This document shows, one piece after another, positions 12,927 to 29,786 of a DNA stretch of 64,000 nucleotides. The position numbers and the translations under genes are program-made. The stretch spans positions 288,001 to 352,000 of the forward strand of contig CAVPCT010000009.1 of assembly GCA_963702475.1 (NCBI GenBank), written 5' to 3'. The stretch comes from an uncultured Thermoleophilia bacterium (GTDB taxonomy: Bacteria; Actinomycetota; Thermoleophilia; UBA2241). The notes beneath the pieces are model-generated. The model saw only the letters and a list, made by a program, of their open reading frames with translations. It did no database searches and was not told where the DNA came from. How positions within the stretch are numbered: the stretch's first letter is position 1; the number at the start of each line of letters is the position of its first letter.

Positions 12927-13362
12927 CGTTCTGGAGCGACGCCGCGGCGCTCACGCCACAGCATGGCGCGGCTCCGGCCCGGAGGGCTGTTGCTGGGGCG
13001 CAGTCCATTGTCAGTCATGGCCACGACGGATGCAACGGTTGGCCCAGATGGCGCAGCCCTACCCCCAGGCGGGTATTGCCAGCGACCCGCGCAGGTATTG
13101 TAAGCTGGCCCGCGCGGGTGGTGACGGCCGTTTCGTGGCTGCAGTAGTCTCGGACCCCAAGCCGGGATGCAGCCGGCGGTCACCGTCCACGGTCTGTCCG
13201 TCCGATGGGCGCTTGACGGTGAATCGCATCTCGCCGGTGCAGGGCTGGGAAAGCGTTCCGCCATGAACTCGCCTCAAGCGGTCACAGAGGGGGTGATGCT
13301 CTCCACTCGAGTCCTTGGGTTCTTACCTACGTCGTCAGCAAGAGTCCGGAAGGAGGAGCCAC

Positions 13363-14769
13363 ATGGCTGGACCTGGGACGAAAGCCCAGCGAGCGCGCAT
13401 GACGGTCTTCGAAGCGTACGAGAGGGCCCGTAAGGGTCCCAAGTTCGATGAGGCGGTCTGGAACTTCGAGCTCATCCCACAGACCGCCAAGCGGTTGAAG
13501 GAGAAGTACGAGATCGTGATGGACAAGTCCGTCATGGTCCCAACCGATCCCGAGCTCATGACGAAGCTGTACAAGGCCGGCCTTGAGATGCTGGTCGAGT
13601 GCGGCGTGTACGTCATCGACACGAAGCGCATCATCAAGTACACCGAGGAAGAGATCCTCCTCGGCCTCGCGACGGCGCCCAAGACGTGCGTGATCGGCGA
13701 AGGCCTCCACGCGCGCCCCATGGAGTACCGCACCCACAAGGACTCGCGCCCGCCGCTGGTCCAGGGCGGTCCGACCGGCGCTCCCTGCAGTGAGCAATAC
13801 TTCTTCCCGATCCACGAGTCGTACGTCAAGGAAGGCATCGTCGACTGCATCGTGGACGGCGTGCTCTCCACCGTGAACGGCTACAACCCCGCCCCCGACA
13901 CGCCCTGGGAGGTCCTCGCCGGCCGCCAGGAGATCATGATGGTGCGCATGGCGCAGGCCAAGTGCGGCCGCGCGGGCATGGGGTTGTAGGGTCCCGAGAC
14001 CACGCTGAACGCAGCCGCCACGATCTCTCAGGACTTCCCGGGCGGCATGCGTACCTCGGACAACCACGAGGTGTCGCAGCTGAATGAGCTGAAGACCGAC
14101 CTAGGAGCGTTGCTCTTCACCTCTCATTACAGTCTCGCTGCGAACAACATCATGGTTGAGCAGATGCCGATCTTCGGCGGGTTCGCCGGTGGTCTCGAGG
14201 AGACGACCATCGTCAACGTCGCCACGCATATCAACTCGTTCGTGACGTTCGGCGGCACCTGGCACCTCGACGGTCCTGTCCACATGCGGTGGGGCATCAC
14301 GACGACCAGGGAGGCCCTGGCTATCGCGGGTCACGCCATCATGGCGGTCAACTCCGTCTGGCCGATCCTGAGCGGCAACCAGTACTACACCATGGCCGGT
14401 CCCTGCACCGTCATGTGCCTCCTGGAGACGGCTGCACAGGCCATCACCGATACCGCCAGCGGTCGCGAGATCATGTCCGGCGTCGCCGCCGCCAAGGGCG
14501 TCATCACCGACAAGACCACCGGCATGGAAGCCCGCTTCATGGGCGAGTGTGCGCACGCTGTCGCCGGCATGCCGACCGAGCAGACCAACGAGGTCCTCGA
14601 CGCGTTGGTGAAGATGTACGAGGGCGACTACAAGACGGCCGACCAAGGCAAGTTCTTCTACGAGTGCTACGACGTGGAGAAGGTCGTGCCCACGGACGAG
14701 TACCTCGAGGTCTACGACAAGGCTTGCGAAGTGATGAAGGGCCTCGGCGTCAAGCATCCACTCTGGTGA
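13363..14769 (+). CDS. mtmB: Monomethylamine:corrinoid methyltransferase, in-frame TAG 13987-13989 = pyrrolysine (codon 209)
   Basis: ORFs 13315-13989 and 14047-14769 are in frame across TAG: GRAGMGL*GPETTL matches MtmB GMG(V)OGPET; ELKTD, GNQYYTMAGPCT, TGMEARFM; SD AGGAGG 13351-13356. Confidence 0.95.
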
Positions 14770-14817
14770 GACGCGCCCGGTCAGTGAACACGCCGAGTCA
14801 GAGGAGGCTCTAGGCAA

Positions 14818-15459
14818 ATGGGAGACGCTGAGTTCATCAATGAAGCGATCGACTCGCTCCTGAACTACGACAAGGACAGGGCCGTCGACGTCGCAAACAA
14901 GGCCATCGCCGCCGGCATGGCACCAGACAAGCTGATGGCCGAGGGATTCGTGATCGGCATCCGCCAGCTGGGCGACAAGTTCGACGAGGGCGAGGTCTAC
15001 CTGCCCGAGCTCATGCTCGCGGCGGCCGCCATGGAAGCTGCCATGGCGATCTGCAACGCCGCGCTGCCTGAGGGCAAGAGCGAGGTACGCGGCAAGGTCG
15101 TCATCGGCACCGTCGAGGGCGACGTGCACGATATCGGCAAGGCCATCGTCTGTGCGTACCTGCGCGCCAACGGCTACGAGGTCTGGGACCTGGGCCGCGA
15201 TGTGCCGGTCGAGGACTTCGTCGACAAGGCCGAGGAGGTCGGCGCCGACATCATCGGCGCCAGCGCCCTGCTCACGGCCACCATGCGCAAGCAGTCGGAG
15301 ATCGTGGCGGAGCTCAAGGACCGCGGTATCCGCGAGAAGTACAAGTTCGTCGTCGGCGGCGCGCCCTGTACGCAGGAGTACGCCGACTCCATCGGCGCCG
15401 ACGCCTACGCGGCCGACGCCAGCGACGGCCTCAAGAAGATCGAGGAGCTCGTCAAGTAA
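14818..15459 (+). CDS. mtmC: Monomethylamine corrinoid protein
   Basis: B12-binding GTVEGDVHDIGK, SALLT, VVGGAP; follows mtmB. Confidence 0.92.
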   Translation: MGDAEFINEAIDSLLNYDKDRAVDVANKAIAAGMAPDKLMAEGFVIGIRQLGDKFDEGEVYLPELMLAAAAMEAAMAICNAALPEGKSEVRGKVVIGTVEGDVHDIGKAIVCAYLRANGYEVWDLGRDVPVEDFVDKAEEVGADIIGASALLTATMRKQSEIVAELKDRGIREKYKFVVGGAPCTQEYADSIGADAYAADASDGLKKIEELVK

Positions 15460-15499
15460 GAGTTGAGCCGGCGGCAGGCCGGCAGACACACCTGCCTGG

Positions 15500-15532
15500 A
15501 GGGCGGCGCTCGCACCACGCGGGCGCCGCCCT
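15500..15532 (+). terminator. GC-rich hairpin after mtmC
   Basis: AGGGCGGCGCTCGC-ACCAC-GCGGGCGCCGCCCT. Confidence 0.55.
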
Positions 15533-15622
15533 TCGCCGTACAGCAGAGATTGTGCTGAGTGTCACGTTCACATAAGGCACCTTGGCGGCCCATCAGTCGC
15601 CTTCACTTGGGGAGGTAGCCGA

Positions 15623-15667
15623 ATGAAGAGCAGATCGCACCTGCACGACGACGGAGCGGCGCCATGA
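15623..15667 (+). CDS. Putative 14-aa leader peptide MKSRSHLHDDGAAP
   Basis: SD GGGGAGGT 15609-15616, ATG 6 nt later; stop overlaps the next start (ATGA 15664-15667). Confidence 0.35.
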   Translation: MKSRSHLHDDGAAP

Positions 15668-16023
15668 GCACCCCGGACGTCGACTCCATCGTCGAACAAG
15701 CACTCGAAGCGGAAGTGCACGGCGGCAAACACGACCCGCGCATCGACAAGCTCTTCCGCCAGGACGTCATCACCATCTACGTCTTCGTCATCGCCCTGTG
15801 GCTCGTGCTCTGGACGGTGTTCTTCCTCGTCGCCAACCCTGTGATCGACGACGACAAGCTGCGCTGGCTCCTCATCGGACTCGGCGTGTTCGCCTCGATC
15901 TTCAACAGCGTCGGCATGATCTCCAACACCCGCAGGCTCAAGCACGAGGCCGTGCGCTTCTACTCGCAGGACCTGTTCTGGCAGGACGAGAAGAAGCGGC
16001 GCAAGGCCGCAGGGCTGCTGTGA
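15664..16023 (+). CDS. Small 2-TM membrane protein (permease-associated)
   Basis: Two hydrophobic helices, good codon bias, first gene of the permease operon. Confidence 0.75.
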   Translation: MSTPDVDSIVEQALEAEVHGGKHDPRIDKLFRQDVITIYVFVIALWLVLWTVFFLVANPVIDDDKLRWLLIGLGVFASIFNSVGMISNTRRLKHEAVRFYSQDLFWQDEKKRRKAAGLL

Positions 16024-16053
16024 GCGGGCCGTGGTTCGGGAAGGAGGCACGGA

Positions 16054-16236
16054 ATGACTGACCTGGACAACCAGCCGCCGCAGGTCCAAGAGGAGGAGTG
16101 GGTGCCGTACAAGGGGTACGTGCCGCCCACGCAGAGCAAGGTGTGGCAGGTCATCGACGTACTGTTCGTGATCATCCTCTGCTACGTCTGCCTGCTCATC
16201 CCGATCCTGCTCACCGGCAAGATGATCGTGGGGTGA
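16054..16236 (+). CDS. Small single-TM protein (60 aa)
   Basis: SD AAGGAGG; YVPPTQS followed by a TM helix. Confidence 0.7.
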   Translation: MTDLDNQPPQVQEEEWVPYKGYVPPTQSKVWQVIDVLFVIILCYVCLLIPILLTGKMIVG

Positions 16237-16239
16237 CCG

Positions 16240-16578
16240 ATGAGCCTACGTTCACTCACCCGCACCGGACGCGGCCGCAGGTCGCGCCGCGCCGCGGTGC
16301 TCCTGACCTTCGTGGTGCTTGCGGCGGTGCTGTTTCTGAGCGTCGCCGGCGGCGCCCTGGCCGCAGACGACACCGCCGTGTTCACCGAGGGCAACCCGAA
16401 CGTGCAGACGGCGGAGGGCCTGGAGGCCCCCGAGCTCGACTACAACTTCGTGTGGTGGACCTTCATCCTCACCTTCGGTCTTCTGATCGTGTACTACCTC
16501 GTGATCCTCCGGATCTCCGAGACTGAGTTCAAGAAGATCGTCGATGCCCACTTCGGGCCCAAGCGCGAAGGGAGGTGA
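16240..16578 (+). CDS. Small membrane protein with signal-peptide-like N-terminus
   Basis: Basic N-terminus, hydrophobic stretch, ALA motif; C-terminal TM (LDYNFVWW...ISETEFKKIV). Confidence 0.7.
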   Translation: MSLRSLTRTGRGRRSRRAAVLLTFVVLAAVLFLSVAGGALAADDTAVFTEGNPNVQTAEGLEAPELDYNFVWWTFILTFGLLIVYYLVILRISETEFKKIVDAHFGPKREGR

Positions 16579-16585
16579 CGGGGAG

Positions 16586-16774
16586 ATGCAGGCAATCAAC
16601 TACGTCATCTGGGCGATCGCCATAGCCCTGCTCGTCTGGCTCGTCTACGACGCGTTCCGCATCGAGACGACCTACGACGCCGAGCTCCTCGTCAGCTCCG
16701 TCGAAGGCGAGATCGAGAAGGAGATCCTCGACCACGCGCACCCGAGCACGCCGCCGCAGGGGGGTGCTAGCTGA
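16586..16774 (+). CDS. Small single-TM protein (62 aa) coupled to the permease
   Basis: MQAINYVIWAIAIALLVWLVYDAF...LLVSSVEG; TGATG overlap with the permease start. Confidence 0.75.
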   Translation: MQAINYVIWAIAIALLVWLVYDAFRIETTYDAELLVSSVEGEIEKEILDHAHPSTPPQGGAS

Positions 16775-18195
16775 TGGCCGCCCACGAAGTCGCAGCCGTC
16801 GGCGGCGCCGACATCACGCAACCGAAGCGCCTGAGCCTGCTCCGCGTCCTCGGCCCCATGCACGTGTGGGCTCTGGGCGTCGGCATCGTGCTCGTGGGCG
16901 AGTTCATGGGCTGGAACTTCACCGTGGCCAAGGGCGGCGTGTTCGGCGGCCTCGTGGCCTGCTGGTTCTCGGGCATCCTGTACTCCTGCGTCGCCATGAT
17001 CGACTCCGAGGTGAGCTCGACGGTGGCGTCGGCAGGCGGGCAGTACGCCCAGGCCAAGCACATCCTCGGCCCGCTCGCCGCGTTCAACATCGCCCTGTTC
17101 ATCATCTTCGAGTACTGCATGCTGTCGGCCGGCGACGCCCTCGTCATCGGGGCCCTGGTCAACAGCCTCGATCCCGCCCTCAGCCCCACGCCGGTCGTCG
17201 TGCTCACCATCGCCTTCCTGGCGTGGCTGAACTACCGCGGGGTGCACACCACGCTGACGTTCAACTTCATCATCACCGCCATCGCGTTCGTCACGATCCT
17301 GATCCTGATCGCGGGGGCGGAGTTCTGGAACCCGGGCCACATCACCCAGACCGAGGCTCTCTTCGCGCAGCCGCCCGGTGGCCTCGACCCGAAGTTGCCG
17401 TACGGCTGGCTCGGCATCCTGGCGGCGCTTCAGTTCGGCATCTGGTACTACCTCGGCATCGAAGGTACGTGCCAGACGGCCGAGGAGTGCCGCTCCGCGC
17501 CGCGCGCGCTGCCGGTGGGGACCATGTCGGGTCTGATCACCCTGCTGCTGGCAGCCACGCTCACCTGGTACATCTGCACCGCACTGGTGAACTGGATCTC
17601 CCTGGGCGAGTCGGTGTACCCGCTCTACGACGCCGCCGTGAACACCGGCAAGGGCTGGCTGATGGTGATCCTCTGGATAGGGTCGCTGCTCAGCTGTCTG
17701 GCGTCGTCCAACGGGTGCATCAACGACGCCTCGCGGGCCTGGTTCGCCATGGGGCGCGACCAGTTCATCCCCCGCTGGTTCGGCGGCGTCCACCCGAAGT
17801 ACAAGACGCCCTACCGCGCCATCCTGTTCCTGGTGCCGATCATGATCGCCTTCGGCTACACCGGGCTGCTCGACCAGGTCATCACCTTCTCGATCATCTC
17901 CGGCTGCCTGATCTACTTCATCATGCCGCTGAACATGATCAGGTTCCGCCGGCTCTACCCCATGGACTCGATCAAACGAGGGTACGTGTCTCCGTTCCAC
18001 CCGCTACCTTCGTACGTGTTGTTCGCGTTCGTGCTGCTGACGTTCATCGCCATGTACTTCGGCTACTGGCGCAACCTCGTCGCAGCTTTGGTCTTCTACG
18101 GCCTGTGCTCGCTCTGGTTCGTGCTGCACAGGTACAAGTTCGTGGACCGCACCAAGCTCTACACGATGCCGTGGCCGCGGCCCAAGGGCTACTGA
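16774..18195 (+). CDS. APC family amine permease (MtmP/ethanolamine permease-like)
   Basis: HVWALGVGIVLVGEFMGWN, AGGQY, WYYLGIEG...AEEC, SRAWFAMGRD, HPKYKTPYRAI. Confidence 0.85.
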   Translation: MAAHEVAAVGGADITQPKRLSLLRVLGPMHVWALGVGIVLVGEFMGWNFTVAKGGVFGGLVACWFSGILYSCVAMIDSEVSSTVASAGGQYAQAKHILGPLAAFNIALFIIFEYCMLSAGDALVIGALVNSLDPALSPTPVVVLTIAFLAWLNYRGVHTTLTFNFIITAIAFVTILILIAGAEFWNPGHITQTEALFAQPPGGLDPKLPYGWLGILAALQFGIWYYLGIEGTCQTAEECRSAPRALPVGTMSGLITLLLAATLTWYICTALVNWISLGESVYPLYDAAVNTGKGWLMVILWIGSLLSCLASSNGCINDASRAWFAMGRDQFIPRWFGGVHPKYKTPYRAILFLVPIMIAFGYTGLLDQVITFSIISGCLIYFIMPLNMIRFRRLYPMDSIKRGYVSPFHPLPSYVLFAFVLLTFIAMYFGYWRNLVAALVFYGLCSLWFVLHRYKFVDRTKLYTMPWPRPKGY

Positions 18196-18208
18196 GCGAG
18201 GGGAGGAC

Positions 18209-18655
18209 ATGATGTTCGAGACTCTGCTGGTAGCTACCGACGGGTCCATAGCCGCGGAGAAGGCCGTGACCTGGGCCGTCGACTTCGCCAAACGGCACGA
18301 CTCGAAGCTCGTCGTGCTCAACGTCACACCTGACAAGCGTGTGCGGCTCCAGGACCAGGAGCCCAACGCCCCGCCCGCCGGCGACGTGTCGCCGGCGGAC
18401 GCCGGGGATCTCGTCTCGGACGAGGCCCTGGCCCGGGCCGAGAGGCTGGCCAAGGAAGCGGGCGTGACCTACGTGCTCGAGGAGGTCTACGGCCGCAATA
18501 TCGCCGCCACCATCGCCAAGGAGGCGCTCAACGTCGGCGCCGACCACATCATCATCGGCTCCACCGGGGTGACCGCGCTGGCCACCTGCGTCCTCGGCTC
18601 GGTCGCGCAGAACGTGGTGCACTACGCGCACTGTCCCGTGACGGTGGTCAGGTAA
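18209..18655 (+). CDS. Universal stress protein
   Basis: LLVATDGS, IIIGSTG...LGSVAQNVVHYAHCPVTVVR. Confidence 0.92.
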   Translation: MMFETLLVATDGSIAAEKAVTWAVDFAKRHDSKLVVLNVTPDKRVRLQDQEPNAPPAGDVSPADAGDLVSDEALARAERLAKEAGVTYVLEEVYGRNIAATIAKEALNVGADHIIIGSTGVTALATCVLGSVAQNVVHYAHCPVTVVR

Positions 18656-18701
18656 TGCGACGCCGAGGCCGCAGCCACGGCGCGGGGGAGGTGAGGACCA
18701 C

Positions 18702-19370
18702 ATGGACGTCACCCTCATCATCAAGATAGCCGTCATCGTGGCTGCGGCCCTCGGCCTCGGTTACCTGTACGTCACGTACGTCTATCGCGACCGCCACCGG
18801 ACGCAGCACATGCTCGACGGCTTCCTGCCAATCCTGGAAGGGCCGACGGTAGGGAGAAGTTCCTGGGGCTACGAGCGCCTCGAGGGCGTCCTGGATGGAG
18901 ACCGGGTCAAGATCGACCTGCTCCCGGACTCGCTCATCACGCGGACCCTTCCCACGCTCTGGCTCGAGGTGTGCCTGTGCCGTCCTTTCGACGCGTTCCT
19001 GTGTGTGATCACATTGTGCAACGGCATGGAGTACTTCGCCGACGAGGTCGACGAGGGCACGCTCCTCAACACGCCGAGCACCTGGCCCGAAGGCGTGAGG
19101 GTGCGAGGCAAGAGCTTCGGCAGCGTGGGGCTCCTGCGGCGCGTCGCGGACGTCGACATCGGGGCCTACCCGCACCTCAAGCTGCTGGTCTTCAGCGAGA
19201 CCGGACTCAAGGTGGTCATGCGTGCCGCCCGCGGGGACGTCTCCCAATACAGGGTCATGCGGTCGGCAACCTTCGCTGAAGACTCAGTCAAACCCGAACT
19301 CGTCGACGAGACGGTCCGGCTCGTGCGCCACCTCGAGCGCGTGCTGGTACGTGGAGAGGAGATAGCGTGA
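18702..19370 (+). CDS. Hypothetical protein with N-terminal TM anchor
   Basis: SD GAGGA, TM helix, PDSLITRTLPTLWL motif, good codon bias. Confidence 0.7.
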   Translation: MDVTLIIKIAVIVAAALGLGYLYVTYVYRDRHRTQHMLDGFLPILEGPTVGRSSWGYERLEGVLDGDRVKIDLLPDSLITRTLPTLWLEVCLCRPFDAFLCVITLCNGMEYFADEVDEGTLLNTPSTWPEGVRVRGKSFGSVGLLRRVADVDIGAYPHLKLLVFSETGLKVVMRAARGDVSQYRVMRSATFAEDSVKPELVDETVRLVRHLERVLVRGEEIA

Positions 19371-19831
19371 GCAAGGTGCGCCGGGCCCGGCGGCCCCAGA
19401 AGCCGGCCCCCAAAGGCGAACTCAAGAAGCCGCGTCCGGTGTGGTTCGTCACGCTGCTGGCGTTCGTCCTGCCCGGGAGCGGCCAGTGGCTGAACGGCGC
19501 CCCCATCAGAGGCATGGTCATGCAGTTCAGCATGGTGCTGGGCGCGTACCTCACGTACCAGCTCACCACGCCCGAGATCTCGCCGGTCGGCCGCCTTGCC
19601 GGAGGCCTGCTGGTATGGGTCTTCTCGATCGTGGACGCCCATGGGATCGCCACCCGCAGGGTGAAGGCGTGGGCGCGCATAGAGGCGTCGCAGGCCGCCT
19701 CGCCGAACCCACCGCAGGCGAAGAAGGCCGGCGGCGCGAGCGACGGCAAGCCGTCCGGAGGCGCCCCGCGACGCATGCAGCCGAAAGGCGCCTCCCGGCG
19801 GCCGGCGACCTCGGGGAGTCACGACACCTGA
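19367..19831 (+). CDS. Hypothetical membrane protein
   Basis: GTGA overlap with upstream gene; LPGSGQWLNG..RG motif and about 3 TM helices. Confidence 0.7.
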   Translation: MSKVRRARRPQKPAPKGELKKPRPVWFVTLLAFVLPGSGQWLNGAPIRGMVMQFSMVLGAYLTYQLTTPEISPVGRLAGGLLVWVFSIVDAHGIATRRVKAWARIEASQAASPNPPQAKKAGGASDGKPSGGAPRRMQPKGASRRPATSGSHDT

Positions 19832-20003
19832 GCGGTGCCGAAGGCCCGCAGGTGCAGAGCGGCCCGGGCGACGCCCGGGCCGCTCTGCGTACGCGGCCCT
19901 CACACCGCGCGCCACGTGGGACCAGGTGTGGGAGGCGCCCACCTGCGGAAGAACCGACCCACCGGCGGCAGCGGCCGCCGGCCGCAACTGACCGGGGGTG
20001 CCC

Positions 20004-20213
20004 ATGAGCATCACGCTCTACACGCGACCCGACTGTCGCTACTGTGACGCGGCGCGCCGCTACTTGGACGAGCGCGGCGATGCCTATGAAGAGCGGGACA
20101 TCAGCGCCGACGTCGAGGCCGAACGGGAGGTCATCGCCATCACCGGCGGACCCCTGAGCGTGCCGATCACGGTCGAGGACGGCGACGTCAGGGTCGGCTT
20201 TCCGTATCAATGA
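20004..20213 (+). CDS. Glutaredoxin-like protein (CRYC)
   Basis: YTRPDCRYC, SVP cis-Pro motif, VGF C-terminus. Confidence 0.82.
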   Translation: MSITLYTRPDCRYCDAARRYLDERGDAYEERDISADVEAEREVIAITGGPLSVPITVEDGDVRVGFPYQ

Positions 20214-20413
20214 GGAGGGGCGCGAGGGCGTACGCGCTGGATCTTCCAGCACGACCCCGAGCGCCGGCGCGCGTGACGCGCCTGGACCCGCCACACCTGA
20301 GCTGACCGGGCGAGCCCTGCTCCATTATGGAGCACGTTCTTGATTGACTTGTCCAATCTGGTATTCTGTGCCCGGATTGCAGTCTTTTCGCATGCCCCAG
20401 AGCCCCGAAAGCC

Positions 20414-20442
20414 TTGACGGACACTCCGAGGCTACATACATT
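20414..20442 (+). promoter_or_regulatory. Putative sigma-A promoter of mtbBC
   Basis: TTGACG-17bp-TACATT. Confidence 0.55.
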
Positions 20443-20730
20443 GTGTCGCACACGCGAGGCCGGCTGTGCCCAAACGGCATACGCCTTGTACTGAAGCTAT
20501 ACTTCGTGGCCTCACGAGGTGACCAGCTATCGACTCCGAACGCTCGACGCGGTACCCCCGCGAACGGCAAAGGGAGGCCCGTCCTGTGTCGACGGACCAT
20601 GCGATGCGATCCACCGAGCGTGCCGCGTCACCAGGGGGCTCGTTGCCTTGGATGACCGACGACGCCCCACGCCCACCGCCCGTGCGCGGTCTGTCTCCGC
20701 GCTCTCTCACCACAATGGAGGTGTGACGCA

Positions 20731-22131
20731 GTGAGCAAGATCTGGACCCGAATGGGTGACGGCAACGCCGTCGAACTGACCCCAGACGAACTCCGCCAGG
20801 ACATCATCGCGGCGACTGAAGACGCCGCGGACAAGGGGCACATCCCGCCCCTTGAAGAGAACGAGATCGACCACCTGTATGACCTCTTCGCGGCGCCGTA
20901 CCGCATCATCGGCGTCGAGCCCGGCCATGAAGTGCCGCTGACCAAGGACGAGACGGCGTGCACCCTCGTCTCCTCGCAGCTGTCGAGTGGTTCACACCTG
21001 GCGATAAGCCGCGAAGACGCAGTCGAAGTCTTCGAGCGCGTGTTCGCGTTCGACACCATGGAGCTGGGCTGGATCGACTACTCCTTCAAGCCGGCGAAGC
21101 CCATGGTCTCTCTGGACCAGGTCTCCATCGAGCGCATCATGGCCACCACCGTGTTCCCGGTGCTCTACGGCGCCATGCCGAACATGGGCCTCTACTACAC
21201 GCCGGACGGGCCGTTCACCAACCCGGCCGACCTCCTCGGCATGATGAAGGTCGAAGAGGCGCGTGAGGAGGAGATGAAGGCCGCCGAGCTCTGCATGGAA
21301 GACATGATCTTCGTGTGCGAGCGCATGAACGAGATCGGCGCCGACGGCATCGACTTCGACACCACGGCCTCCGCGGGTGACGCCGACTTCTGGTCGGTCC
21401 TCAAGACGGTCGAGCATCTCAAGGCCCACACCGACCTCGGCGTCGAGATGGGCATGTCCGGCGAGTTCATCCTCGGCATGCACGGCGAGGTCGAGTACAA
21501 CGGCAAGAGGCTCGCCGGCATGTTCCCGCACCAGCAGCTGAAGTGCGCGGAAGAGGCGGGCGTCGACATCTTCGGCCCCGTGGTCAACACCAAGACCAAC
21601 AAGTCCTGTGCCTGGAACGTCGCCCGCGCCGTCACGTTCGTCAAGGAAGTCTGCAAGCAGGCCACCATCCCGATCCACGCGAACGTGGGTATGGGCGTAG
21701 GCGGCACGCCGATGTTCGAGACACCGCCGATCGACGCTCTCAGCCGCGCGAGCGTAGCCATGGTCGAGATCGCCAAGGTCGACGGGTTGTAGGTCGGCGT
21801 CGGCGATCCCTACGGCATGTCCATCATGCACTCGATCGCATCTGGAATGGGTGGCATCCGCACCGCTGGAGACCTGGTGGCAAGGATGGAGCTCAATCAC
21901 CGGATGAGGCTTCCCGAGGCGAAGAAGTACGTGGCCGACAAGCTCGGCGTCAGCGTGTTCGACCTGTCGGACTCCACCGTCATGCGCAACCTGCGCGAAG
22001 AGCTCAACATCGGCGTGATCGAGGCGATCCCGGGCCTGGCGAAGGGCTACACCGCCAAGGCGCGCATCGCCGATCTCCTCGACATCAAGATCAACGGCGT
22101 CGAGCGCCAGATGGCGAAGATGCCGGCTTGA
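20731..22131 (+). CDS. mtbB: Dimethylamine:corrinoid methyltransferase, in-frame TAG 21790-21792 = pyrrolysine (codon 354)
   Basis: TRMGDG start, [21 protein letters not shown] matches MtbB DG(I)O(I)[20 protein letters not shown]; both ORF halves are in frame. Confidence 0.95.
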
Positions 22132-22191
22132 TGCGGGAGTCAGCGACTCTCTCGCAGGTTCAGCGAACTCTGACCCACGGAGGTCACGGGA

Positions 22192-22839
22192 ATGGCGAAT
22201 GAAGACTTCTATGCGGATGCGAAAGCCGCAATCCGCGCGTGTGACGCCGACAAGTCCGCTCAGGTGGCAACAGACGCCCTCGCGGCCGGCGTAGCGCCCG
22301 ACGACATGCTGAAGCTGGGATTCATCCCGGGCATCAGCGCGATGGGCGATCTCTTCGAGCGCGGCGAGGTGTTCCTCCCCGAGCTCGTCCTCGCGGCGAA
22401 CGCCATGACGGCGGCTGCTGCGGTGTGTAACGCGGCCCTGCCCGAGGGCGAGGCGGAGGCGAAGGCCATCGTCGTCATCGGCACCGTCCAGGGCGACGTG
22501 CATGATATCGGCAAGACCATCGTCGTCGCGTTCCTCAGGGCCAACGGCTACAACGTGTTCGACCTTGGTCGCGATATCTCGGGCGACAAGTTCATCGCCG
22601 CCGCGGAGGAGAAGGGCGCCGCCGTCATCGGTATGAGTGCCCTGCTCACCACCACCATGCGCGAGCAGACGCGTGTCATCGAGGCTCTCAAGGCCGCGGG
22701 TCTGCGCGACAAGTACAAGGTCATCGTCGGCGGCGGCGCCTGCACCCAGCAGTGGGCCGACAAGATCGGCGCGGACGCGTACGCCGAAGACGCCAACGAC
22801 GGCATCCGCAAGATCAACGAGCTCACGGGAAACGCGTGA
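22192..22839 (+). CDS. mtbC: Dimethylamine corrinoid protein
   Basis: GTVQGDVHDIGK, SALLTTTM, WADKIGADAYAEDA; follows mtbB. Confidence 0.92.
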   Translation: MANEDFYADAKAAIRACDADKSAQVATDALAAGVAPDDMLKLGFIPGISAMGDLFERGEVFLPELVLAANAMTAAAAVCNAALPEGEAEAKAIVVIGTVQGDVHDIGKTIVVAFLRANGYNVFDLGRDISGDKFIAAAEEKGAAVIGMSALLTTTMREQTRVIEALKAAGLRDKYKVIVGGGACTQQWADKIGADAYAEDANDGIRKINELTGNA

Positions 22840-22862
22840 CCGCACGTTGTTAGGGCGGGATC

Positions 22863-22899
22863 CCGGCGGCGCGGTGGAGCTACTCCGCCGCGCCGCCGG
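22863..22899. terminator. 17-bp hairpin between convergent genes
   Basis: CCGGCGGCGCGGTGGAG-CTA-CTCCGCCGCGCCGCCGG. Confidence 0.6.
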
Positions 22900-22904
22900 C
22901 GCCC

Positions 22905-23786
22905 TCAGCGTTCACGCACCCATTTCGCGTAGATGTTGGCAGCACGCCGGTCCATCTCCTCGGTCTCGGTCACACCGCTGCGCTCAAGCGCCTCGGCCGC
23001 ACCCTTCACTCGTGCCCGGCGCAGACAGATCAGCGTGACGACAAGCAGGCTGCGCGTGCCCTTGTCGGCCGAGGGCAGCGCCTCCTCGATCGGGGGGATC
23101 ACCCCTCCGCCGAGCTCTTCCAGGCCGAGTGCGAGCAGAGGGCCCACGACGGCCTCGCCGTACTCGGACGCCACGGAGATGACGTGCCGCACGCCGGCGT
23201 AGCGCATCGCCGAGATCTTCGCGCGAGCCTCCGTGCGGCCCGAGTGGACCGTGGAGTACATGCGCATGATCGTGCTCCCTCGGTCCAGCTGCATCCGTGT
23301 CAGACTGGCGCTGATGCGCGAGAGCTGCCGGTCGATCTCCTCGTTGCGGGTCCGCGTCAGTTGCTCGACCTGCTCGCTCATCGCCGCGGCCGGTCCGGCG
23401 AGGTCGGGGCGCGATGCATCCGACGCGACAACGCGCAGCAGCTCGTGGGCGGCGGGCAGGTCACGGTAGCGGGCGTAGAGGTACACGGTGTACAGAGCGC
23501 CGCGGCGGCGCACGTCGTCGTCGGCGTCCAGCTGCCCGGCGACGTCGGTGAACGTCGCTTCGCCGAGCTCGACGAGCACGGCGCCGGCCTTGCGCTGCAG
23601 GCTCTCGTCCCCGAGGCAGGTCAGCAGCGACTCCCGGCCGTTCTGACCGAGGTCGGCGAGAGCCGCGAGGATGGGCCGGCGCACGTCGCGCCTGGTGGCC
23701 GCCGCGTACAGCTGCGTGAGGCCGGCCACATCACCGGCGTCGTGAAGGCTGGTGATGTCGCTCTGGCTCGGCATCTGGTTGCTCAT
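22905..23786 (-). CDS. Hypothetical alpha-helical (HEAT-like) protein
   Basis: C-terminal part of the 958-aa ORF with SD GGGGAG before MSNQMPSQ; HEAT-like segments (VRRPILAALADLG, AGAVLVELGE). Confidence 0.6.
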   Translation of the reverse strand: MSNQMPSQSDITSLHDAGDVAGLTQLYAAATRRDVRRPILAALADLGQNGRESLLTCLGDESLQRKAGAVLVELGEATFTDVAGQLDADDDVRRRGALYTVYLYARYRDLPAAHELLRVVASDASRPDLAGPAAAMSEQVEQLTRTRNEEIDRQLSRISASLTRMQLDRGSTIMRMYSTVHSGRTEARAKISAMRYAGVRHVISVASEYGEAVVGPLLALGLEELGGGVIPPIEEALPSADKGTRSLLVVTLICLRRARVKGAAEALERSGVTETEEMDRRAANIYAKWVRER

Positions 23787-23916
23787 CGGCTCTCCCCGGG
23801 ACGTTCGCTGACATGCCGGCCACACGCCGGCGACGGACAGCGTACCCGCGCCGGTCGCGCAAGGCCAGCGAGGCACCCGGCTGCGGGCGAGCCACGGCCG
23901 GGCCCATGCAAGGGTA

Positions 23917-23948
23917 TTGACTCCTCGGGTAGACGCAAGGTACCTTGC
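23917..23948 (+). promoter_or_regulatory. Putative promoter with palindromic operator over the -10 box
   Basis: TTGACT-18bp-TACCTT; perfect palindrome GCAAGGTACCTTGC 23935-23948. Confidence 0.55.
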
Positions 23949-24197
23949 CTCATCCTTCGGCCCGCCGCGCCCCATCGGGGGAGCGCCGGCGCGACCGACA
24001 GAGGTGTATCCCTGGTCCTGCGTGCACGGCATCCGGGGGGATCGCCGTCGCACTGGGGAGGTGGTGCCGCAACCTGAGCCGCCGGACGACCACCGGTCTC
24101 GCGCCCGGTGCCGGCCCGTTTCATGCCGGCACGTCACCGGGCCAAAGCCATGGTCCCGGGATCTCTCACACAACGTCAACGAGCAGAGGGGGGAGCA

Positions 24198-25817
24198 ATG
24201 ATAGTGGCAGCCGCGATCAGTCCAGTCTGGTACTGGGTCATCGTGCTCGGCTACATGCTCGTGCTGATCGGGATCGGCGCCTGGACGTACCGCTACCAGA
24301 AGCAGCAGAAGTCCGCGACCGACGAGCACGACGACTACTGGATCGCCAAGCGCCGCAACAACGCCCTCGTGGTGGGCTGCGCCATCGCTGCAGGCTGGTT
24401 CCTGATGGGCTTCATCACCTGGGCCATGTACAACACCTACATGTACGGCATCGGCGGCATCTGGGCCATGGTCGTACCGTGGACGGTGCTGCTGTTCTGC
24501 ATGGTGATCCTCGTGCCGTGGGTACGGCGCATGAAGGCCATCTCGCAGCCGCAGATGCTCCAGCAGCGCTTCGGACTGGCTCTGCGCGTGCTCGTGAGCC
24601 CGTTCAACATGTTCTGCTTCATCATCTGGGCCGCGGCGGAGATCTGGACGGTCTCGCTGTACATGGCGTCGGCATTCGGCGTCCAACCCTGGGTCCTCTA
24701 CATCGTCTTCGCCGTGCCCTGCGCCCTCTACATGGCCCTGGGCGGCTTCCACGCCGTCATCAGCGCCAACCTGCTGCAGTTCGCCATGGGCGTCACCTTC
24801 GTCACCATCATCTTCTTCGTGATGGTCTTTGAGGCGTGGGACGCCCTGCCCAGTGGCCAGAGCATGATCGACTACCTCGGGAGCGTCGTACCGGCGGGCA
24901 ACTCGGAAGGCGACAGTGCGCTCACGCTCTTCAGCCTGGGCATACCGTTCGCCATCTTCTCGCTCATCGCACTCCTGCCGGGGTGGGTGATCGAGGAGGA
25001 CTGGTGGCTCAAGGCGCAGTCGGCCAAGAGCACGCGTGCCGCACGGCAGGGCATCTGGGCCAACCTGAGCTACAACCTCATCTGGATCCTCGGCCTGCCG
25101 AGCCTCATCGGCCTCTTCGCCCTCGTGCTTTATCCGCCGGAAGTGCTCGACACCAAGCTGGCCGGGAACGCCTACGAGCTCATGCCGGTGTTCCTGGGTG
25201 ACTACTTCCCGCCTTGGCTGCAGATGATCGTGTTCTGCCTCATGGCTGCACACGCCGTAGCCACGGTGGCTACGTTCACCAACGTGTCGGCCCTCAACAT
25301 CAGCTACGACGTCCTGCAGCCGCTCGTATACCGCAAGCGCGGGTGGGGTGACGCCAGGATCGTGCTGGCCAGCCGCATCGCGTCGCTGTTGGTCGTCATC
25401 GCCACCCTGGGCGTGACGTTCCTCATCGACATGCTGCCGCAGGGCCTGTGGGACGCGTACTACCTGTCCAGCGGTGTGCTCTCTGCTGCCGTCGGCGTCT
25501 CCGTACTCTCCATCTTCTGGAAGCGCGCCAACTTCGCCGGTGCTTTCGCTGCGTCGCTCGTCGGTGGCGTCACCACACTCGTGCTGTTCATCGTGGAGAA
25601 GTACGTCTGGGAGTACGACTGGCCGATCCCGATCCCGGATTCCATGGTCGCTACCGGCTACGCCTACGCGGTGGTCGGCGTGATCCTCGCCATCATCACC
25701 CTGGTCGTGGTCACGCTGCTGACGCCCAAGCCGCCGCAGATCAACCTCGACTCCATCTCGGCGCAACCCGTTGACGATCACGCCGAGTTCTTCGCCGGCG
25801 TGCGTGAGACGTACTGA
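24198..25817 (+). CDS. Sodium:solute symporter family protein
   Basis: DDYWIAKR, LQQRFG, YMALGGFHAVISANLLQF, FWKRANFAGAFA; many TM helices. Confidence 0.88.
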   Translation: MIVAAAISPVWYWVIVLGYMLVLIGIGAWTYRYQKQQKSATDEHDDYWIAKRRNNALVVGCAIAAGWFLMGFITWAMYNTYMYGIGGIWAMVVPWTVLLFCMVILVPWVRRMKAISQPQMLQQRFGLALRVLVSPFNMFCFIIWAAAEIWTVSLYMASAFGVQPWVLYIVFAVPCALYMALGGFHAVISANLLQFAMGVTFVTIIFFVMVFEAWDALPSGQSMIDYLGSVVPAGNSEGDSALTLFSLGIPFAIFSLIALLPGWVIEEDWWLKAQSAKSTRAARQGIWANLSYNLIWILGLPSLIGLFALVLYPPEVLDTKLAGNAYELMPVFLGDYFPPWLQMIVFCLMAAHAVATVATFTNVSALNISYDVLQPLVYRKRGWGDARIVLASRIASLLVVIATLGVTFLIDMLPQGLWDAYYLSSGVLSAAVGVSVLSIFWKRANFAGAFAASLVGGVTTLVLFIVEKYVWEYDWPIPIPDSMVATGYAYAVVGVILAIITLVVVTLLTPKPPQINLDSISAQPVDDHAEFFAGVRETY

Positions 25818-25861
25818 GCCGGGTCGGCGAAGGCCACTTCAGGCAAGAGAGGACGGTCAGC

Positions 25862-26317
25862 ATGGCATACACAATCGTGGTGGGGTACGACGGGTCCGAG
25901 CCGGCCAAGAAGGCGCTGGCCGCGGCCATCGAGTTCGCCAAGACCACACCCGACGCCGAGATCGTGGTCGTCTGCGGCCAGGACCGCAGGCCGGGGTACT
26001 TCTACTATGACGACCAGCCACTGTGGAAAGAGGCCATCAAGCTCGACCAGATGTGGGAGCACATGGAGGCCAAGATCGAGGAGGACCTCCAGGAAGCGGT
26101 GAAGGTCGTCCAGGACGCAGACGTGAAGGCGACCGCTGCCTGCGGTCGCGGACGGCCGTCTTCGATCGTGCTGAACGTGGCGCGAGAGACCGGCGCCCGC
26201 CTCATCGTCGTGGGCACACACGGCTCCGGCAAGGACGAGGAGACCACGGTGATGGGCTCCACGACGACGGAGCTGCTTCACCAGACGCACGTGCCAGTGC
26301 TGGTCGTGCCTCACTGA
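25862..26317 (+). CDS. Universal stress protein
   Basis: IVVGYDGSE, IVVGTHGSG...GSTTTELLHQTHVPVLVVP. Confidence 0.92.
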   Translation: MAYTIVVGYDGSEPAKKALAAAIEFAKTTPDAEIVVVCGQDRRPGYFYYDDQPLWKEAIKLDQMWEHMEAKIEEDLQEAVKVVQDADVKATAACGRGRPSSIVLNVARETGARLIVVGTHGSGKDEETTVMGSTTTELLHQTHVPVLVVPH

Positions 26318-26348
26318 CCACCGTGCGCGCCTGACGCGCACGGAGTGC

Positions 26349-26385
26349 CCGGCCGCCGGCGAGTCTCTGGCTCGCCGGCGGCCGG
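26349..26385 (+). terminator. 15-bp hairpin after USP
   Basis: CCGGCCGCCGGCGAG...CTCGCCGGCGGCCGG. Confidence 0.55.
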
Positions 26386-26512
26386 TAGTACGGCCCGGCC
26401 CGGGCCGTGGAACATACGGGGAGAGTCGCGACCGGCGGCCGTCCGGGGGCTCGTTCGTCTGAGCCCGGAGGTCCACCGGTCGTGTCCCCTCTTAACATCC
26501 TTGGGGGAGTCG

Positions 26513-27367
26513 GTGACCTTCGACGAATTCGCACTCATGCTCACAGCTGGGCCCAGGGCCAAGCTGCGGGCGGAAGTCTCCCTGGAGGACCGCGAGCGCA
26601 TCCTGCGCTCCCTCATGGGCCGCCTTCCCGTCATGGTCTACCGCTGCGCCGACGACGCCCAGTGGACCATGGAGTTCGTGAGCGCCGGAGCAGAGGAGAT
26701 CACCGGCTACAAGCCGGAGGAGCTCGTTGGCAACGCCCGGCTGGCGTACACCGACCTGGTGGTGCCGTGGCACTACGAGGGCGTCTGCCGCGACATCCAG
26801 CACGCCATCGAGAAGCACAACGCGTGGACGACGTCCTACCCCATCATCACCGCGTCAGGCGACCGCAAGTGGGTGTGGGAGCGCGGTGTGGCCGTGCTCG
26901 ACGACGCCGGGGAGGTGATAGCGCTTGCAGGGATCATCATCGACATGACCGTGGAGCGCGAGGCCGAGGAGTCACTCGAGCTCGCGCTCGCCGAGTGGCG
27001 CCAGGTGTTCGACGCCATGGACGACGCCGTGATGGTCCTGGACGGCGACGGCGAGGTGCTGCGAGCCAACGCGGCGGCAGCGGCTCTCAGCGGACTCGAT
27101 CAGGCCGAGATGGCCGGGCTCAAGTGCTCGGACGCGCTGCAGGAGCTCTGCGGCCAGGCCCAGGGCATGTGTCCTCGCGACAGGGTGCTGCTGTCGGGGC
27201 GGACGGAGATGACCTACGTGGAGCACGAAGGCAGGCTGCTTCGCCTGACGTTCAAGCCGACCCCGGTCATGGACGGACGCGTCAACGGCGGCTTGTACGT
27301 CGTGAGCGACGTCACGGACGCCGTCCGGGCACGGCCGCAGGACGCACCGGGTACGTCCTACGTGTGA
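26513..27367 (+). CDS. Stand-alone PAS/PAC-PAS domain protein
   Basis: WTMEFVS..EEITGYKPEEL, RKWVWERG...GIIIDMT, second PAS (VFDAMDDAV...RAN); no output domain; GTG start after GGGGAG. Confidence 0.78.
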   Translation: MTFDEFALMLTAGPRAKLRAEVSLEDRERILRSLMGRLPVMVYRCADDAQWTMEFVSAGAEEITGYKPEELVGNARLAYTDLVVPWHYEGVCRDIQHAIEKHNAWTTSYPIITASGDRKWVWERGVAVLDDAGEVIALAGIIIDMTVEREAEESLELALAEWRQVFDAMDDAVMVLDGDGEVLRANAAAAALSGLDQAEMAGLKCSDALQELCGQAQGMCPRDRVLLSGRTEMTYVEHEGRLLRLTFKPTPVMDGRVNGGLYVVSDVTDAVRARPQDAPGTSYV

Positions 27368-27406
27368 GACGCGGCGGGCGCCGCCCGCCGCGCGTCTGCA
27401 CCGGCG

Positions 27407-27748
27407 TCAGGATGCTGAGCGTCTGAGGAGGTCGGCCGCACTCGCGAAGAGCCATTCGGTGCGGGTGCGACACGTGACTATCGTGGCCAGGTCGAGCTCG
27501 CCCGGCAGCTCTTCGTCGACGAACGCGGCCGCAAGGTCCTTGACGCGGATCGGCTCCTGGCCGCCCCTCTCCATCTCGGCCAGTTCCATCATCACGGCCA
27601 CGCCCTTGCCGTCCCACTCATTGGGGACCACTGCGCACGAGAAGACGAAGGGGTGACCGTCGAGCTCGTATTCCTGGATCTCCCGCCGGCGCGCCAAAGA
27701 GACGGGATCGGTTGCCGGGTCCCCGCTGCGAACCAGCCACTCGCTCAT
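27407..27748 (-). CDS. Hypothetical protein (113 aa)
   Basis: SD GGGAGGA before MSEWLVRS, typical codon bias. Confidence 0.6.
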   Translation of the reverse strand: MSEWLVRSGDPATDPVSLARRREIQEYELDGHPFVFSCAVVPNEWDGKGVAVMMELAEMERGGQEPIRVKDLAAAFVDEELPGELDLATIVTCRTRTEWLFASAADLLRRSAS

Positions 27749-27963
27749 CGTGTCCTCCCGCTCGTTCGCTCGGCGCATCGCCCGCCTCGAGTGCCAGTGT
27801 GGAAGTGCGAGAGCGGAATCTTGTGCCGTTCTGGCGAATTCAGTGCCCTGTGGGGCCTTATGCGGTAGAGTACTGCGCAACAGGGTGCGGGAAGCGGCAA
27901 AACAGATGTTCACTGTGTCCATCTATAAGCTACGCACTAGGCCATAACAAACAACATTGAGCC

Positions 27964-27993
27964 TTGATGCAGGGGTCGCGTATCTCCTATAGT
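27964..27993 (+). promoter_or_regulatory. Putative promoter of mttBC
   Basis: TTGATG-18bp-TATAGT downstream of an AT-rich tract (about 27899-27960). Confidence 0.5.
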
Positions 27994-28261
27994 CGCGCTC
28001 ACCACCGTCCATAACGGCGACACATCGAGAAGGCTCTGTGTACTGTCTGGGTGCACGGCCTTTCTCATCGCACGTTGTCACACTCCGGGCTTCGGCCCAC
28101 GCGTCGACCATGACGGGCCACGTTCCCACCGTCGACTGGATCGTGGCGCGAACCGCGCTCAAGGGAGGAGGCGGGATGACGAGATGAGGGCGAGCCCACG
28201 AGGCCCTGCGGCCGGGTTCGCCCAGAACCGCTATCTGCAAAGTGCGTAAGAAGGAGGCGGA

Positions 28262-29737
28262 ATGATTCGAAGTCAAAGGTCAGGCATCAACCACCAGGGC
28301 GGCATCGGCATCGATGTCTTCAGCGAGGATGAGAGGCAGGCCATCCACTGGGGCACCGTCGAGGTGCTCGAGACGGCCGGCATCTGGGTGGAGGACGACG
28401 AGGCCCTCGACCTGTTCGCCGACGGCGGCTGCAAGGTCGACCGCTCGACGCGCAAGGTGCGGATCCCGCAGCACGTGCTCGAGGAGTGCATCAGTTGGGC
28501 GCCCTCCACGGTCACCCTCTGCGGCCGCGACCCCGCCAAGGACCTCGTCATGGAGGGCCGGCGGGTCGCGTTCACCAACTTCGCCGAGGGAGTGAAGGCC
28601 GTCGACCTGTACGACGGCAAGCTTCGCCCGACCACCAAGAAGGACGTCGGCGACCTCGCCCGTCTCGTCGACGCGCTCTCCGACATCGAGGTCTACACGA
28701 TCGCGGTGACGGCCACCGACGTGCCCCCGGAGGTCGCCGAGGCGCACCTCATCGAGCAGTCGTTGCTGAACACGACGAAGCCCATCTGCAGCCTGGCCCT
28801 CGCCCATCACGGCGCCCGCCTCCACATCGACGCCGCGGCCGCCGTGGTCGGCGGCCACGACAAGCTGGCCGACCGGCCGATGCTGCTCTTCCTCAGCTGC
28901 CCGGTCAGCCCGCTCAAGCTCATGGGCGAGTTCAGCGGGTGCATCATCGAGGCGGCCCGCGCCCATCAGGTCGCGATGCCGCTATCGATGGCCATGTCAG
29001 GCGGCTCCGCCCCGGTCACCCTGGCCGGCACCATGGTCACGCACAACGCCGAGGTGCTCGCCGGCATCGTCCTGGCGCAGCTCGCCGAGAAGGGCGCCAA
29101 GTGCGTCTACGGCACCTCCACCACCGCCTTCGACCTGCAGCGCGCGGCCGCGACCGTGGGCACCCCGGAGCTCGGCCTCATCAGCGCGGCCGTGGCCGAG
29201 ATGGGCCGCTACTATGGCCTGCCGACCTACGGCGCCGGGTTGTAGAGCGATTCCAAGCTCGGCGGCGACGCCCAGGTCGCGCACGAGAAGACCGTCACCG
29301 GCCTCCTGCCAGCGTTGGGAGGGCTCAACCTGATCTATGGAGCCGGGATGATCGAGTCGGGCGTCACCATCGACTACGGCACGCTCGTCATGGACAACGA
29401 CATCGCCCGTATCTGCAAGTACGTCCTGCGTGGCATCCCCACGAACGACGCGACGCTGATGGTTGATGAGATCATCGAGGTGGGGTCCGAGGAGGACTTC
29501 CTCTCGAGGATGAGCACCCTGAAGCTGATGCGTGAACACCAGTCCAAGGCCGGCAACATCGACCGCCGCGTGCGCGAGGAGTGGGAGATGGACGGCGGCA
29601 AGGACATGTACAGCCGCTGCAACGAGATGGCCAAGGAGCTCGTCGAGAGCCACACGGTTCCCGAGCTGCCGAGCGACGTCAAGGACCAGATCAGGGCCAT
29701 CGTCGTCAAGGCCGAGAAGGACGCTGGAGTCGCCTGA
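28262..29737 (+). CDS. mttB: Trimethylamine:corrinoid methyltransferase, in-frame TAG 29243-29245 = pyrrolysine (codon 328)
   Basis: CPVSPL, LSMAMSGGSAPVTLAGT..THNAEVL, GLPTYGAGL*SDSK..DAQ.AHEKT matches MttB OSD(A/S)K; both halves in frame; SD AAGGAGG. Confidence 0.95.
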
Positions 29738-29786
29738 GAGCTCAGCGCTCCGCAACGAACGCACGACGTGGAGGACATAGGATCCT

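Follow-up and report, generated by a model that had tools for sequence, protein, structure and literature searches.

In a 64,000-nucleotide stretch of DNA from an uncultured Thermoleophilia bacterium (hereafter the window; positions 288,001 to 352,000 of contig CAVPCT010000009.1, assembly GCA_963702475.1), the methylamine methyltransferase genes mtmB, mtbB and mttB each contain an in-frame TAG that encodes pyrrolysine (Pyl), and each of these TAGs is immediately preceded by the leucine codon TTG. We find that the choice of this codon among its synonyms is held by purifying selection, and that the selection is specific to UAG codons read as Pyl. TTG before the Pyl TAG is a general trait of bacterial-type mtbB genes, over gene GC contents of 43-72%, and not a peculiarity of the window. 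Comparison of the sequences makes it moderately likely that the codon forms a bacterial 5' context in which UUG, with tRNA-Leu(UUR) in the ribosomal P site, favors Pyl-tRNA over release factor 1 (RF1). Below, −1 and −2 denote the first and second codons before the TAG; numbers attached to single bases count nucleotides.

Reading through the TAGs, each of which is in frame, yields three full-length proteins. The monomethylamine methyltransferase gene mtmB (13315..14769, + strand; the true start is probably the ATG at 13399) matches Pfam MtmB PF05369 with 661 bits (cut-off 25) over window positions 13399-14748, with one TAG inside the match. Its product scores 534 bits against Methanosarcina barkeri MtmB1, and the TAG at 13987-13989 aligns with the Pyl position of the solved structure. 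The trimethylamine methyltransferase gene mttB (28262..29737, + strand; Pfam MTTB PF06253, 300 bits, cut-off 25) encodes a protein scoring 374 bits against M. barkeri MttB (7XCL/7XCM), with the TAG at 29243-29245 again aligned with the Pyl position. For the dimethylamine methyltransferase gene mtbB (20731..22131, + strand; Pfam Dimeth_Pyl PF09505, 656 bits, cut-off 25) we found no solved MtbB structure, and the Pyl position, at 21790-21792, rests on the TAG column common to homologues; those in 25 other genomes have one TAG each, in the same column. All three TAGs encode Pyl.

All three lie in the context GGG-TTG-TAG, the 9-mer GGGTTGTAG, on the + strand at 13981..13989 (mtmB), 21784..21792 (mtbB) and 29237..29245 (mttB), as an earlier note on this DNA had pointed out. 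The 9-mer occurs four times in the window against 0.13 expected, a count reached in 0 of 100 shuffles; the fourth copy (13881..13889, − strand) is not a feature but the antisense of C-TAC-AAC-CC (Tyr-Asn-Pro) inside mtmB. The note had called GGG and TTG minority codons, which they are: in 2845 long open reading frames (ORFs) of the genome, GGG makes up 17.9% of Gly codons (GGC 68.7%, GGT 7.9%) and TTG 3.56% of Leu codons (CTC 46.7%, CTG 46.1%). From this usage, and given Gly-Leu, the chance of GGG and TTG in three of three genes, which the note had proposed to compute, is 2.6e-7. It had also listed eight terminal TAGs in the window, none in this context. We count seven (ORFs of at least 120 aa), the gene calls differing slightly, and none is preceded by TTG; the codons before them are GGG, GAG, CTC, AGC, GAG, TGG and CCG.

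Pyl codons and genuine stops in the source genome

The source genome (4.3 Mb, 70% GC; G000 in our coordinates, in which the window is G000:C9:288001-352000) encodes tRNA-Pyl(cta) at G000:C3:641046-641118 and a PylS C-terminal (catalytic) domain (314.6 bits vs a cut-off of 178). A gene for RF1 was found, and all five tRNA-Leu species are encoded. TAG ends 346 of 2390 filtered ORFs, 20 of them at Pyl sites and 326 elsewhere, so UAG serves in this genome both as Pyl and as a stop, the latter in about 14% of genes.

Using tblastn and taking TAGs aligned with the Pyl position, we located 26 Pyl sites in the genome (one MtmB, ten MtbB and 15 MttB), a few of the copies being fragmentary or frameshifted. 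The −1 codon is TTG at 16 of these sites, GCG at three, TAC and CAG at two each, and CTG, ATG and TTC at one each. Leucine before a Pyl TAG is therefore spelled TTG in 16 of 17 cases, compared to 3.56% genome-wide. The sole mtbB with CTG, GGT-CTG-TAG at C3:657009 (region G000:C3:655995-658372), adjoins the pylS catalytic-domain gene (C3:657647-658372, opposite strand).

No control reproduced this preference. Non-Pyl paralogs in the same genome with Leu at the aligned position use CTC or CTG in six of six cases. The 326 other TAG-ended ORFs have CTG (23), CTC (5) or TTG (3) where their last codon is Leu, and the three TTG cases are antisense shadow ORFs, leaving 323 genuine TAG stops with TTG at 0 of 28 Leu codons. 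The difference between Pyl sites (16 TTG, 1 CTG) and genuine TAG stops (0 TTG, 28 CTN) has a Fisher p of 2.6e-11. TTG accounts for 3 of 124 Leu codons before TGA stops, for 3.4% of 1539 Leu codons before TAC, and for 5 of 156 in Gly-Leu-Tyr triplets. The overall profile of the Pyl sites is GG-N-U(73%)-U(73%)-G(88%)-UAG-R(100%), R being a purine, whereas genuine TAG stops have T at −3 in 9% of cases. The base after UAG (+4) also differs: it is a purine at 26 of 26 Pyl sites and at 57% of genuine TAG stops.

The earlier note had further proposed that the motif could predict additional Pyl proteins, and this was not borne out. GGGTTGTAG occurs at 39 sites genome-wide, 11 of them methyltransferase Pyl sites; of the 28 elsewhere, 23 lie in antisense-like frames and four sense-like-frame sites are junk translations or shadows of a repeat protein. 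No new Pyl gene could be predicted from the 39 sites.

Synonymous constraint on the −1 codon and its limits

The note had suggested a survey of relatives. Among 31 mtbB sites in loci L001-L030, which represent 24 congeneric genomes, the source genome and one genome of another family, the −1 codon is TTG in 29, TTA in one and ATG in one, with no CTN, and the third positions flanking it vary. Across the phylum, MtmB turned up in only two of the 301 genomes sampled. Within the family, 13 MtmB sites from 13 genomes in three genera have TTG (12) or TTA (1) at −1, again with no CTN, and GGG (9), GGC (3) or GGT (1) at −2. A scan of genome contigs with two N-terminal peptide patterns returned four loci, all from Thermoleophilia or Actinomycetota, and no MtbB was found in the plasmid collection searched.

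Metagenome contigs were searched with a pattern that fixed the amino acids D-G-x-O-V-G-x-G-D-P (O, Pyl) and left the −1 codon free, which matched at least 119 stretches; the figures given here are those among the matches listed, on taxonomically unassigned contigs. These matches contain 122 mtbB Pyl sites in genes of 43-72% GC, with −1 codons TTG (106), TTA (4), CTN (3), TAC (3), ATA (2), GTA (2), GTC (1) and TTC (1). Where the residue is Leu, TTR accounts for 110 of 113 codons; the Leu usage of the individual genes would predict 24.1. In genes above 62% GC the figure is 44 of 44, with 2.9 expected. Low-GC lineages, in which TTA is common, likewise favor TTG over it (14 of 14, 8.0 expected).

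We next compared the −1 codon with the rest of the gene in 63 representative mtbB sequences (below 85% amino-acid identity, from 101 full-length genes). The −1 column has TTR in 55 of 57 Leu codons, while in 14 further conserved Leu columns the share of TTR is 2-32%. In a synonymous-constraint scan of 239 testable columns, TTG at the −1 Leu ranked first (52 of 57, 9.1 expected, z 16.1), and GGG at −2 ranked sixth (29 of 63, 11.7 expected, z 5.8). In a midpoint-rooted FastTree phylogeny of mtbB, TTG is spread over the whole tree, with the exception of one clade that has CTT, GTA, GTC or ATA. The −1 codon shows three features expected of a cis recoding signal, and is a candidate for one: conservation of a synonymous site beyond codon usage, presence at recoded but not at genuine stops of one organism, and occurrence in independent lineages and gene families.

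The clade without TTG marks a boundary of the trait. One contig encodes an MtmB that scores 884 bits against M. barkeri MtmB1 and carries GGC-ATA-TAG in mtmB and mtbB alike; its MtbB fragment is nearest to the TTG-less clade, which is therefore of the archaeal type. Structure alignments give Gly-Val-Pyl in M. barkeri MtmB1 and Gly-Ser-Pyl in M. barkeri MttB, in keeping with the note's statement that the residue before Pyl differs among archaeal enzymes. Archaeal-type genes lack the constraint and, judging by these sequences, Leu-UUG before Pyl is a bacterial trait.

The −2 position behaves differently. Because Gly also stands there in the M. barkeri MtmB and MttB enzymes, Gly at −2 is a protein-level constraint across families; the arrangement G-x-O is common to three families without sequence similarity, in bacterial and M. 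barkeri enzymes. At the 26 sites of the source genome the −2 codons are GGG (15), GGC (7) and GGT (4), and GGG is enriched over the 17.9% expected (p = 6e-6). GGR at −2 of mtbB is enriched in all three GC bins. The GGG spelling is thus a weaker bias toward GGR, an enrichment only, with GGC, GGT and GGA also in use. The earlier note had suggested selection on both the P- and E-site codons; for −1 the synonymous TTG/TTA preference supports this, while at −2 the amino acid is what is fixed and its GGG spelling is only enriched.

The same note had placed Leu-TTG in all three families. It does recur in each, but not every mttB has Leu at −1. Among 27 representatives of Pyl-type mttB, the −1 codon is GCG in eight, GGN in eight, TTG in six, ATG and TAC in two each and CAG in one. 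Where Leu is present, as in ten Pyl-type mttB genes seen in all, it is TTG in nine and TTA in one. Copies with Ala at −1 always use GCG among those listed, and all but one of these (GGC-GCG) have GGT at −2. This GGT-GCG-TAG subfamily includes G000:C6:954, C4:179954 and C7:36709 in the source genome and loci L006-L019, L065, L068, L089, L091, L107 and L134 elsewhere. GGT at −2 is found in 13 of the 27 mttB representatives, with 4.2 expected.

Downstream hairpins and genomic setting

The three Rfam PYLIS models all start at the UAG, so the 5' context lies outside them. In mtbB, PYLIS_2 (RF02509) matches 21790..21889 on the + strand with 78.1 bits (gathering score 36). Within this match lies the hairpin CGCUGG-AGAC-CUGGUG (21864-21879, + strand), whose consensus is N-GCCGG-AGAU-CUGGU-N at +74 to +89 from the UAG. 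Across 40 sequences, 97.9% of its cells are paired, compared to 87.9% in shuffles (0 of 500 reached the observed value), and the covariation score is 0.316 vs 0.109, with covariation at the closing pair. Of 63 sequences, 61 have a GGA codon in the loop (14.3 expected). This hairpin is already known, as it falls within the PYLIS_2 consensus structure. We considered the GTG that follows GGAG as an internal start and rejected it, since only 31 of 63 sequences have GTG there.

In mttB, PYLIS_3 (RF02510) matches 29243..29345 on the + strand with 52.8 bits (gathering score 38). The hairpin GUUGGG-AGGG-CUCAAC (29314-29329, + strand) lies inside this match but outside the consensus structure of the model, and the accessible text of PMC3639795 reports conserved structure for mtmB and mtbB and none for mttB. 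Its consensus is GUUGGC-AGGN-GCCAAC at +71 to +86. Compensatory changes occur in the stem; among them, CUG pairs with AGC, and in the window's gene a C-G pair has become G-C. All 15 Pyl-type copies in the source genome form five or six of the six pairs, whereas its 45 non-Pyl mttB paralogs average 2.96 of six pairs, and none has six, even those with the same amino-acid motif. The mtbB and mttB hairpins stand at near-equal distances from the UAG, and both have GGAG or GGGG at +78 to +81, in the 5' arm and loop. Clusters of synonymous constraint occur 70-90 nucleotides 3' of the UAG in both genes.

For mtmB, PYLIS_1 (RF01982) gives a sub-threshold match at 13987..14086 on the + strand (47.8 bits; the gathering score of 70 is not reached). 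A small hairpin, CAGCU-GAAUG-AGCUG (14077-14091, + strand), follows the UAG by 90-104 nucleotides, and its stem is mostly dictated by the amino acids QLNEL. The rare Asn codon AAT in this hairpin is kept in six of seven MtmB genes examined, including the archaeal-type L111.

Immediately downstream of each methyltransferase gene is a gene for a B12-binding corrinoid protein with Pfam B12-binding and B12-binding_2 domains: 14818..15459 after mtmB, 22192..22839 after mtbB and 29787..30413 after mttB, all on the + strand. In the last case the domains span residues 90-281 of ORF 29532-30413, and the start at 29787 is taken from the onset of the domains. Permeases and sensor kinases lie between the three methylamine gene clusters. 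A GAF-domain histidine kinase (10776-12926, − strand) and a PAS-domain protein (26345-27367, + strand) flank the clusters and are possible regulators of methylamine use. The methyltransferase families are strongly expanded in this genome, with about 60 MttB-superfamily copies spanning the Pyl position (15 with TAG), ten MtbB copies with TAG, and one Pyl-type MtmB plus four non-Pyl paralogs; congener genomes have 2-17 MtbB matches each. The genome that encodes tRNA-Pyl also has a tRNA-Sec(tca) gene at G000:C3:167171-167268, and this organism may make use of the 21st amino acid as well as the 22nd.

Upstream codon context and UAG decoding

How might a synonymous codon choice bear on the fate of the following UAG? 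Under the explanation we favor, UUG with tRNA-Leu(UUR) in the P site would shift decoding of the UAG toward Pyl-tRNA(Pyl)·EF-Tu and away from RF1. To a lesser degree, GGR (Gly) in the E site might contribute, and the 5' context may act jointly with the 3' PYLIS-type hairpins. In E. coli, the tRNA-Leu species that read UUR carry anticodon-loop modifications other than those of the CUN readers, and which tRNA occupies the P site affects suppression. The presence of RF1, together with 323 TAG stops at which it must terminate, fits a role in favoring Pyl-tRNA over this factor. We infer that the codon bears on whether tRNA or release factor prevails at the UAG; the determinant may be the tRNA species in the P site or else the bases U(−3) and G(−1) of the mRNA.

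Several observations weigh against this explanation. The sequences are related and p-values therefore overstate their independence, although the contrast of column against column inside one alignment is independent of this kinship problem. TTG is missing from the archaeal-type genes (ATA, GTA, GTC or CTT at −1), and the many Pyl-type mttB genes with Ala (GCG), Gly, Met, Tyr or Gln at −1 indicate that the signal is not obligatory; where Gly stands at −1 in mttB, its spelling varies freely over all four Gly codons. CTN precedes the Pyl TAG in three of the listed mtbB copies, and the mtbB beside pylS in the source genome is GGT-CTG-TAG. Finally, GGU and GGC are both read by tRNA-Gly(GCC) under standard wobble rules, and the near-invariant GGT before GCG-TAG cannot be explained by tRNA identity, which suggests that part of the constraint acts on mRNA bases.

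This last point leads to an alternative in which the bases R(−4), U(−3) and G(−1) form an mRNA-level element, a structure or a binding site for protein or RNA, that works independently of the P-site tRNA, possibly with the PYLIS hairpin about 75 nucleotides downstream as its partner. It would account for the preference for TTG over TTA in low-GC lineages (14 of 14 vs 8.0 expected) and for the GGR at −2 of mtbB and the GGT at −2 of mttB (13 of 27 vs 4.2), which tRNA identity leaves unexplained, and strong synonymous constraint does mark the +71 to +89 hairpins of both genes. However, RNAalifold runs on sets of 40 and 63 mtbB sequences returned the downstream hairpin only, with no structure at −6 to +3. 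A scan of the mtbB alignment revealed no covarying partner of −4, −3 or −1, the variable −4 column reaching at best 73% standard pairs within about ±210 nucleotides. Moreover, with UAG in the A site, bases −6 to −1 occupy the E and P sites and are paired with tRNA. The window's own mtbB could form an 8-base-pair stem (−4 to +4 with +19 to +26), but the codons at +21 to +23 vary and the stem is not conserved. We consider such an element rather unlikely. A pause is a less probable cause still: UUG and GGG or GGT might be slow or rare codons that halt the ribosome one codon before the UAG, allowing refolding of downstream structure or ribosome spacing and leaving the A-site competition as such untouched. 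All three are minority codons in the genome (TTG 3.6%, GGT 7.9%, GGG 17.9%), and UAG sites appear as pause sites in Methanosarcina acetivorans ribosome profiling, according to the available portion of PMC13663744. Yet TTG is fixed at −1 also in low- and mid-GC lineages where it makes up 16-40% of a gene's Leu codons, TTA, the rarest Leu codon of high-GC genomes, is not preferred, and mttB genes with Gly at −1 show no preference among the four Gly codons.

The similarity of the −1 codon to UAG itself offers another route, since UUG, UAC and CAG are near-cognate and the peptidyl-tRNA could re-pair on the UAG at times of Pyl-tRNA shortage, a one-codon hop that would serve as a back-up against termination. 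The −1 codon is one base from TAG at 20 of 26 sites in the source genome (TTG 16, TAC 2, CAG 2), and among the non-Leu codons of bacterial mtbB TAC is the most frequent (3 of 122 listed sites). Such a hop would lose the catalytic Pyl and leave an inactive enzyme with no apparent benefit, and TTA, ATA, GTA, GCG and GGN occur at −1 too; we regard it as very improbable. Least credible of all is the absence of any selection, with TTG simply retained from a common ancestor or after horizontal transfer, or arising as a side effect of general codon-pair bias or of avoiding CTAG. Paralogs and homologues do share descent, and C-ending codons are avoided before TAG (CTC 5 vs CTG 23 at terminal TAGs). 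A neutral history is nevertheless contradicted by the free variation, in the same alignments, of neighboring third positions and of the 14 conserved Leu columns, and by codon-pair controls with 3-4% TTG. CTG-TAG is common at genuine stops, and the pattern holds over 43-72% GC, in three unrelated families and among representatives below 85% identity. General codon-pair bias and CTAG avoidance are ruled out by the terminal-TAG and the Leu-TAC and Gly-Leu-Tyr controls. Frameshift avoidance, an internal promoter, CTRYAG restriction-site avoidance, a Pus7-like UGUAR site and re-initiation at UUG were set aside by reasoning only, because none of them separates UUG from CUG or has support.

Returning to a context effect of UUG on the competition between Pyl-tRNA and RF1, the closest known systems resemble it in part. 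PYLIS elements are cis sequences in the same three families and are thought to promote the reading of UAG as Pyl, but their models cover 100 nucleotides 3' of the UAG. The feature described here consists of one or two 5' codons and is a constraint on codon choice with no detectable structure. Effects of the 5' codon context and the P-site tRNA on suppression and termination in E. coli were reportedly described by Smith and Yarus and by Bjornsson, Mottagui-Tabar and Isaksson. There, too, the last codons, tRNAs or amino acids shift the balance between suppressor tRNA and release factor; those effects were seen in engineered reporters, whereas the present case is the natural conservation of one specific synonymous codon at a site of programmed recoding. 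As in SECIS-directed selenocysteine insertion and at the prfB (RF2) frameshift site, mRNA context would decide the fate of an in-frame stop, but a single preferred sense codon implies no dedicated elongation factor, frameshift or obligatory structure.

A preprint deals with tRNA-Pyl. According to the accessible part of bioRxiv 10.64898/2026.04.16.718949, the codon 5' of UAG influences tRNA-Pyl-dependent incorporation in E. coli, and difficult monomers were favored by hydrophobic residues upstream (Phe, Leu, Ile, Met, Tyr, Trp) and by Gln. Leu, Met, Tyr, Gln, Phe and Ile from this set also occur naturally at −1, where Ala, Gly, Val and Ser are found in addition. The effect in that part of the preprint is broken down by amino acid, the tRNAs being engineered and the monomers non-natural, and the choice between UUG and CUN is not addressed in it. 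In the text available to us, PMC1976440 (2007) expected a cis element in bacteria and found none, and PMC12626013 (2025) states that no broadly conserved sequence cue or mechanism of targeted insertion is known. The earlier note knew of no 5' context signal for Pyl, and we found none in the open literature, non-open papers and supplements lying outside the search; this suggests that a 5' UUG context before bacterial Pyl UAGs was previously undescribed.

A more specific proposal combines the upstream and downstream features into a two-part mark of the Pyl UAGs of RF1-containing bacteria, with GGR-UUG in the E and P sites on the 5' side and a hairpin at +71 to +89 on the 3' side, UUG acting through the interaction of P-site tRNA-Leu(UUR) with A-site tRNA-Pyl or RF1. 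We offer this tentatively and hold it doubtful in its full form. If true, it would supply the cis signal by which bacteria separate Pyl-UAG from stop-UAG, a question in print since at least 2007, as the accessible text of PMC1976440 indicates.

Should UUG have no effect on read-through, the strong synonymous constraint would call for another explanation. If it does act as we propose, it would provide a simple design rule for better bacterial amber suppression with PylRS and tRNA-Pyl, and Pyl genes in metagenomes could be predicted with its help. For bacteria that retain RF1 and also decode UAG as Pyl, the near-invariant synonymous codon at −1 is a candidate cue by which a Pyl-UAG could be distinguished from a stop-UAG.

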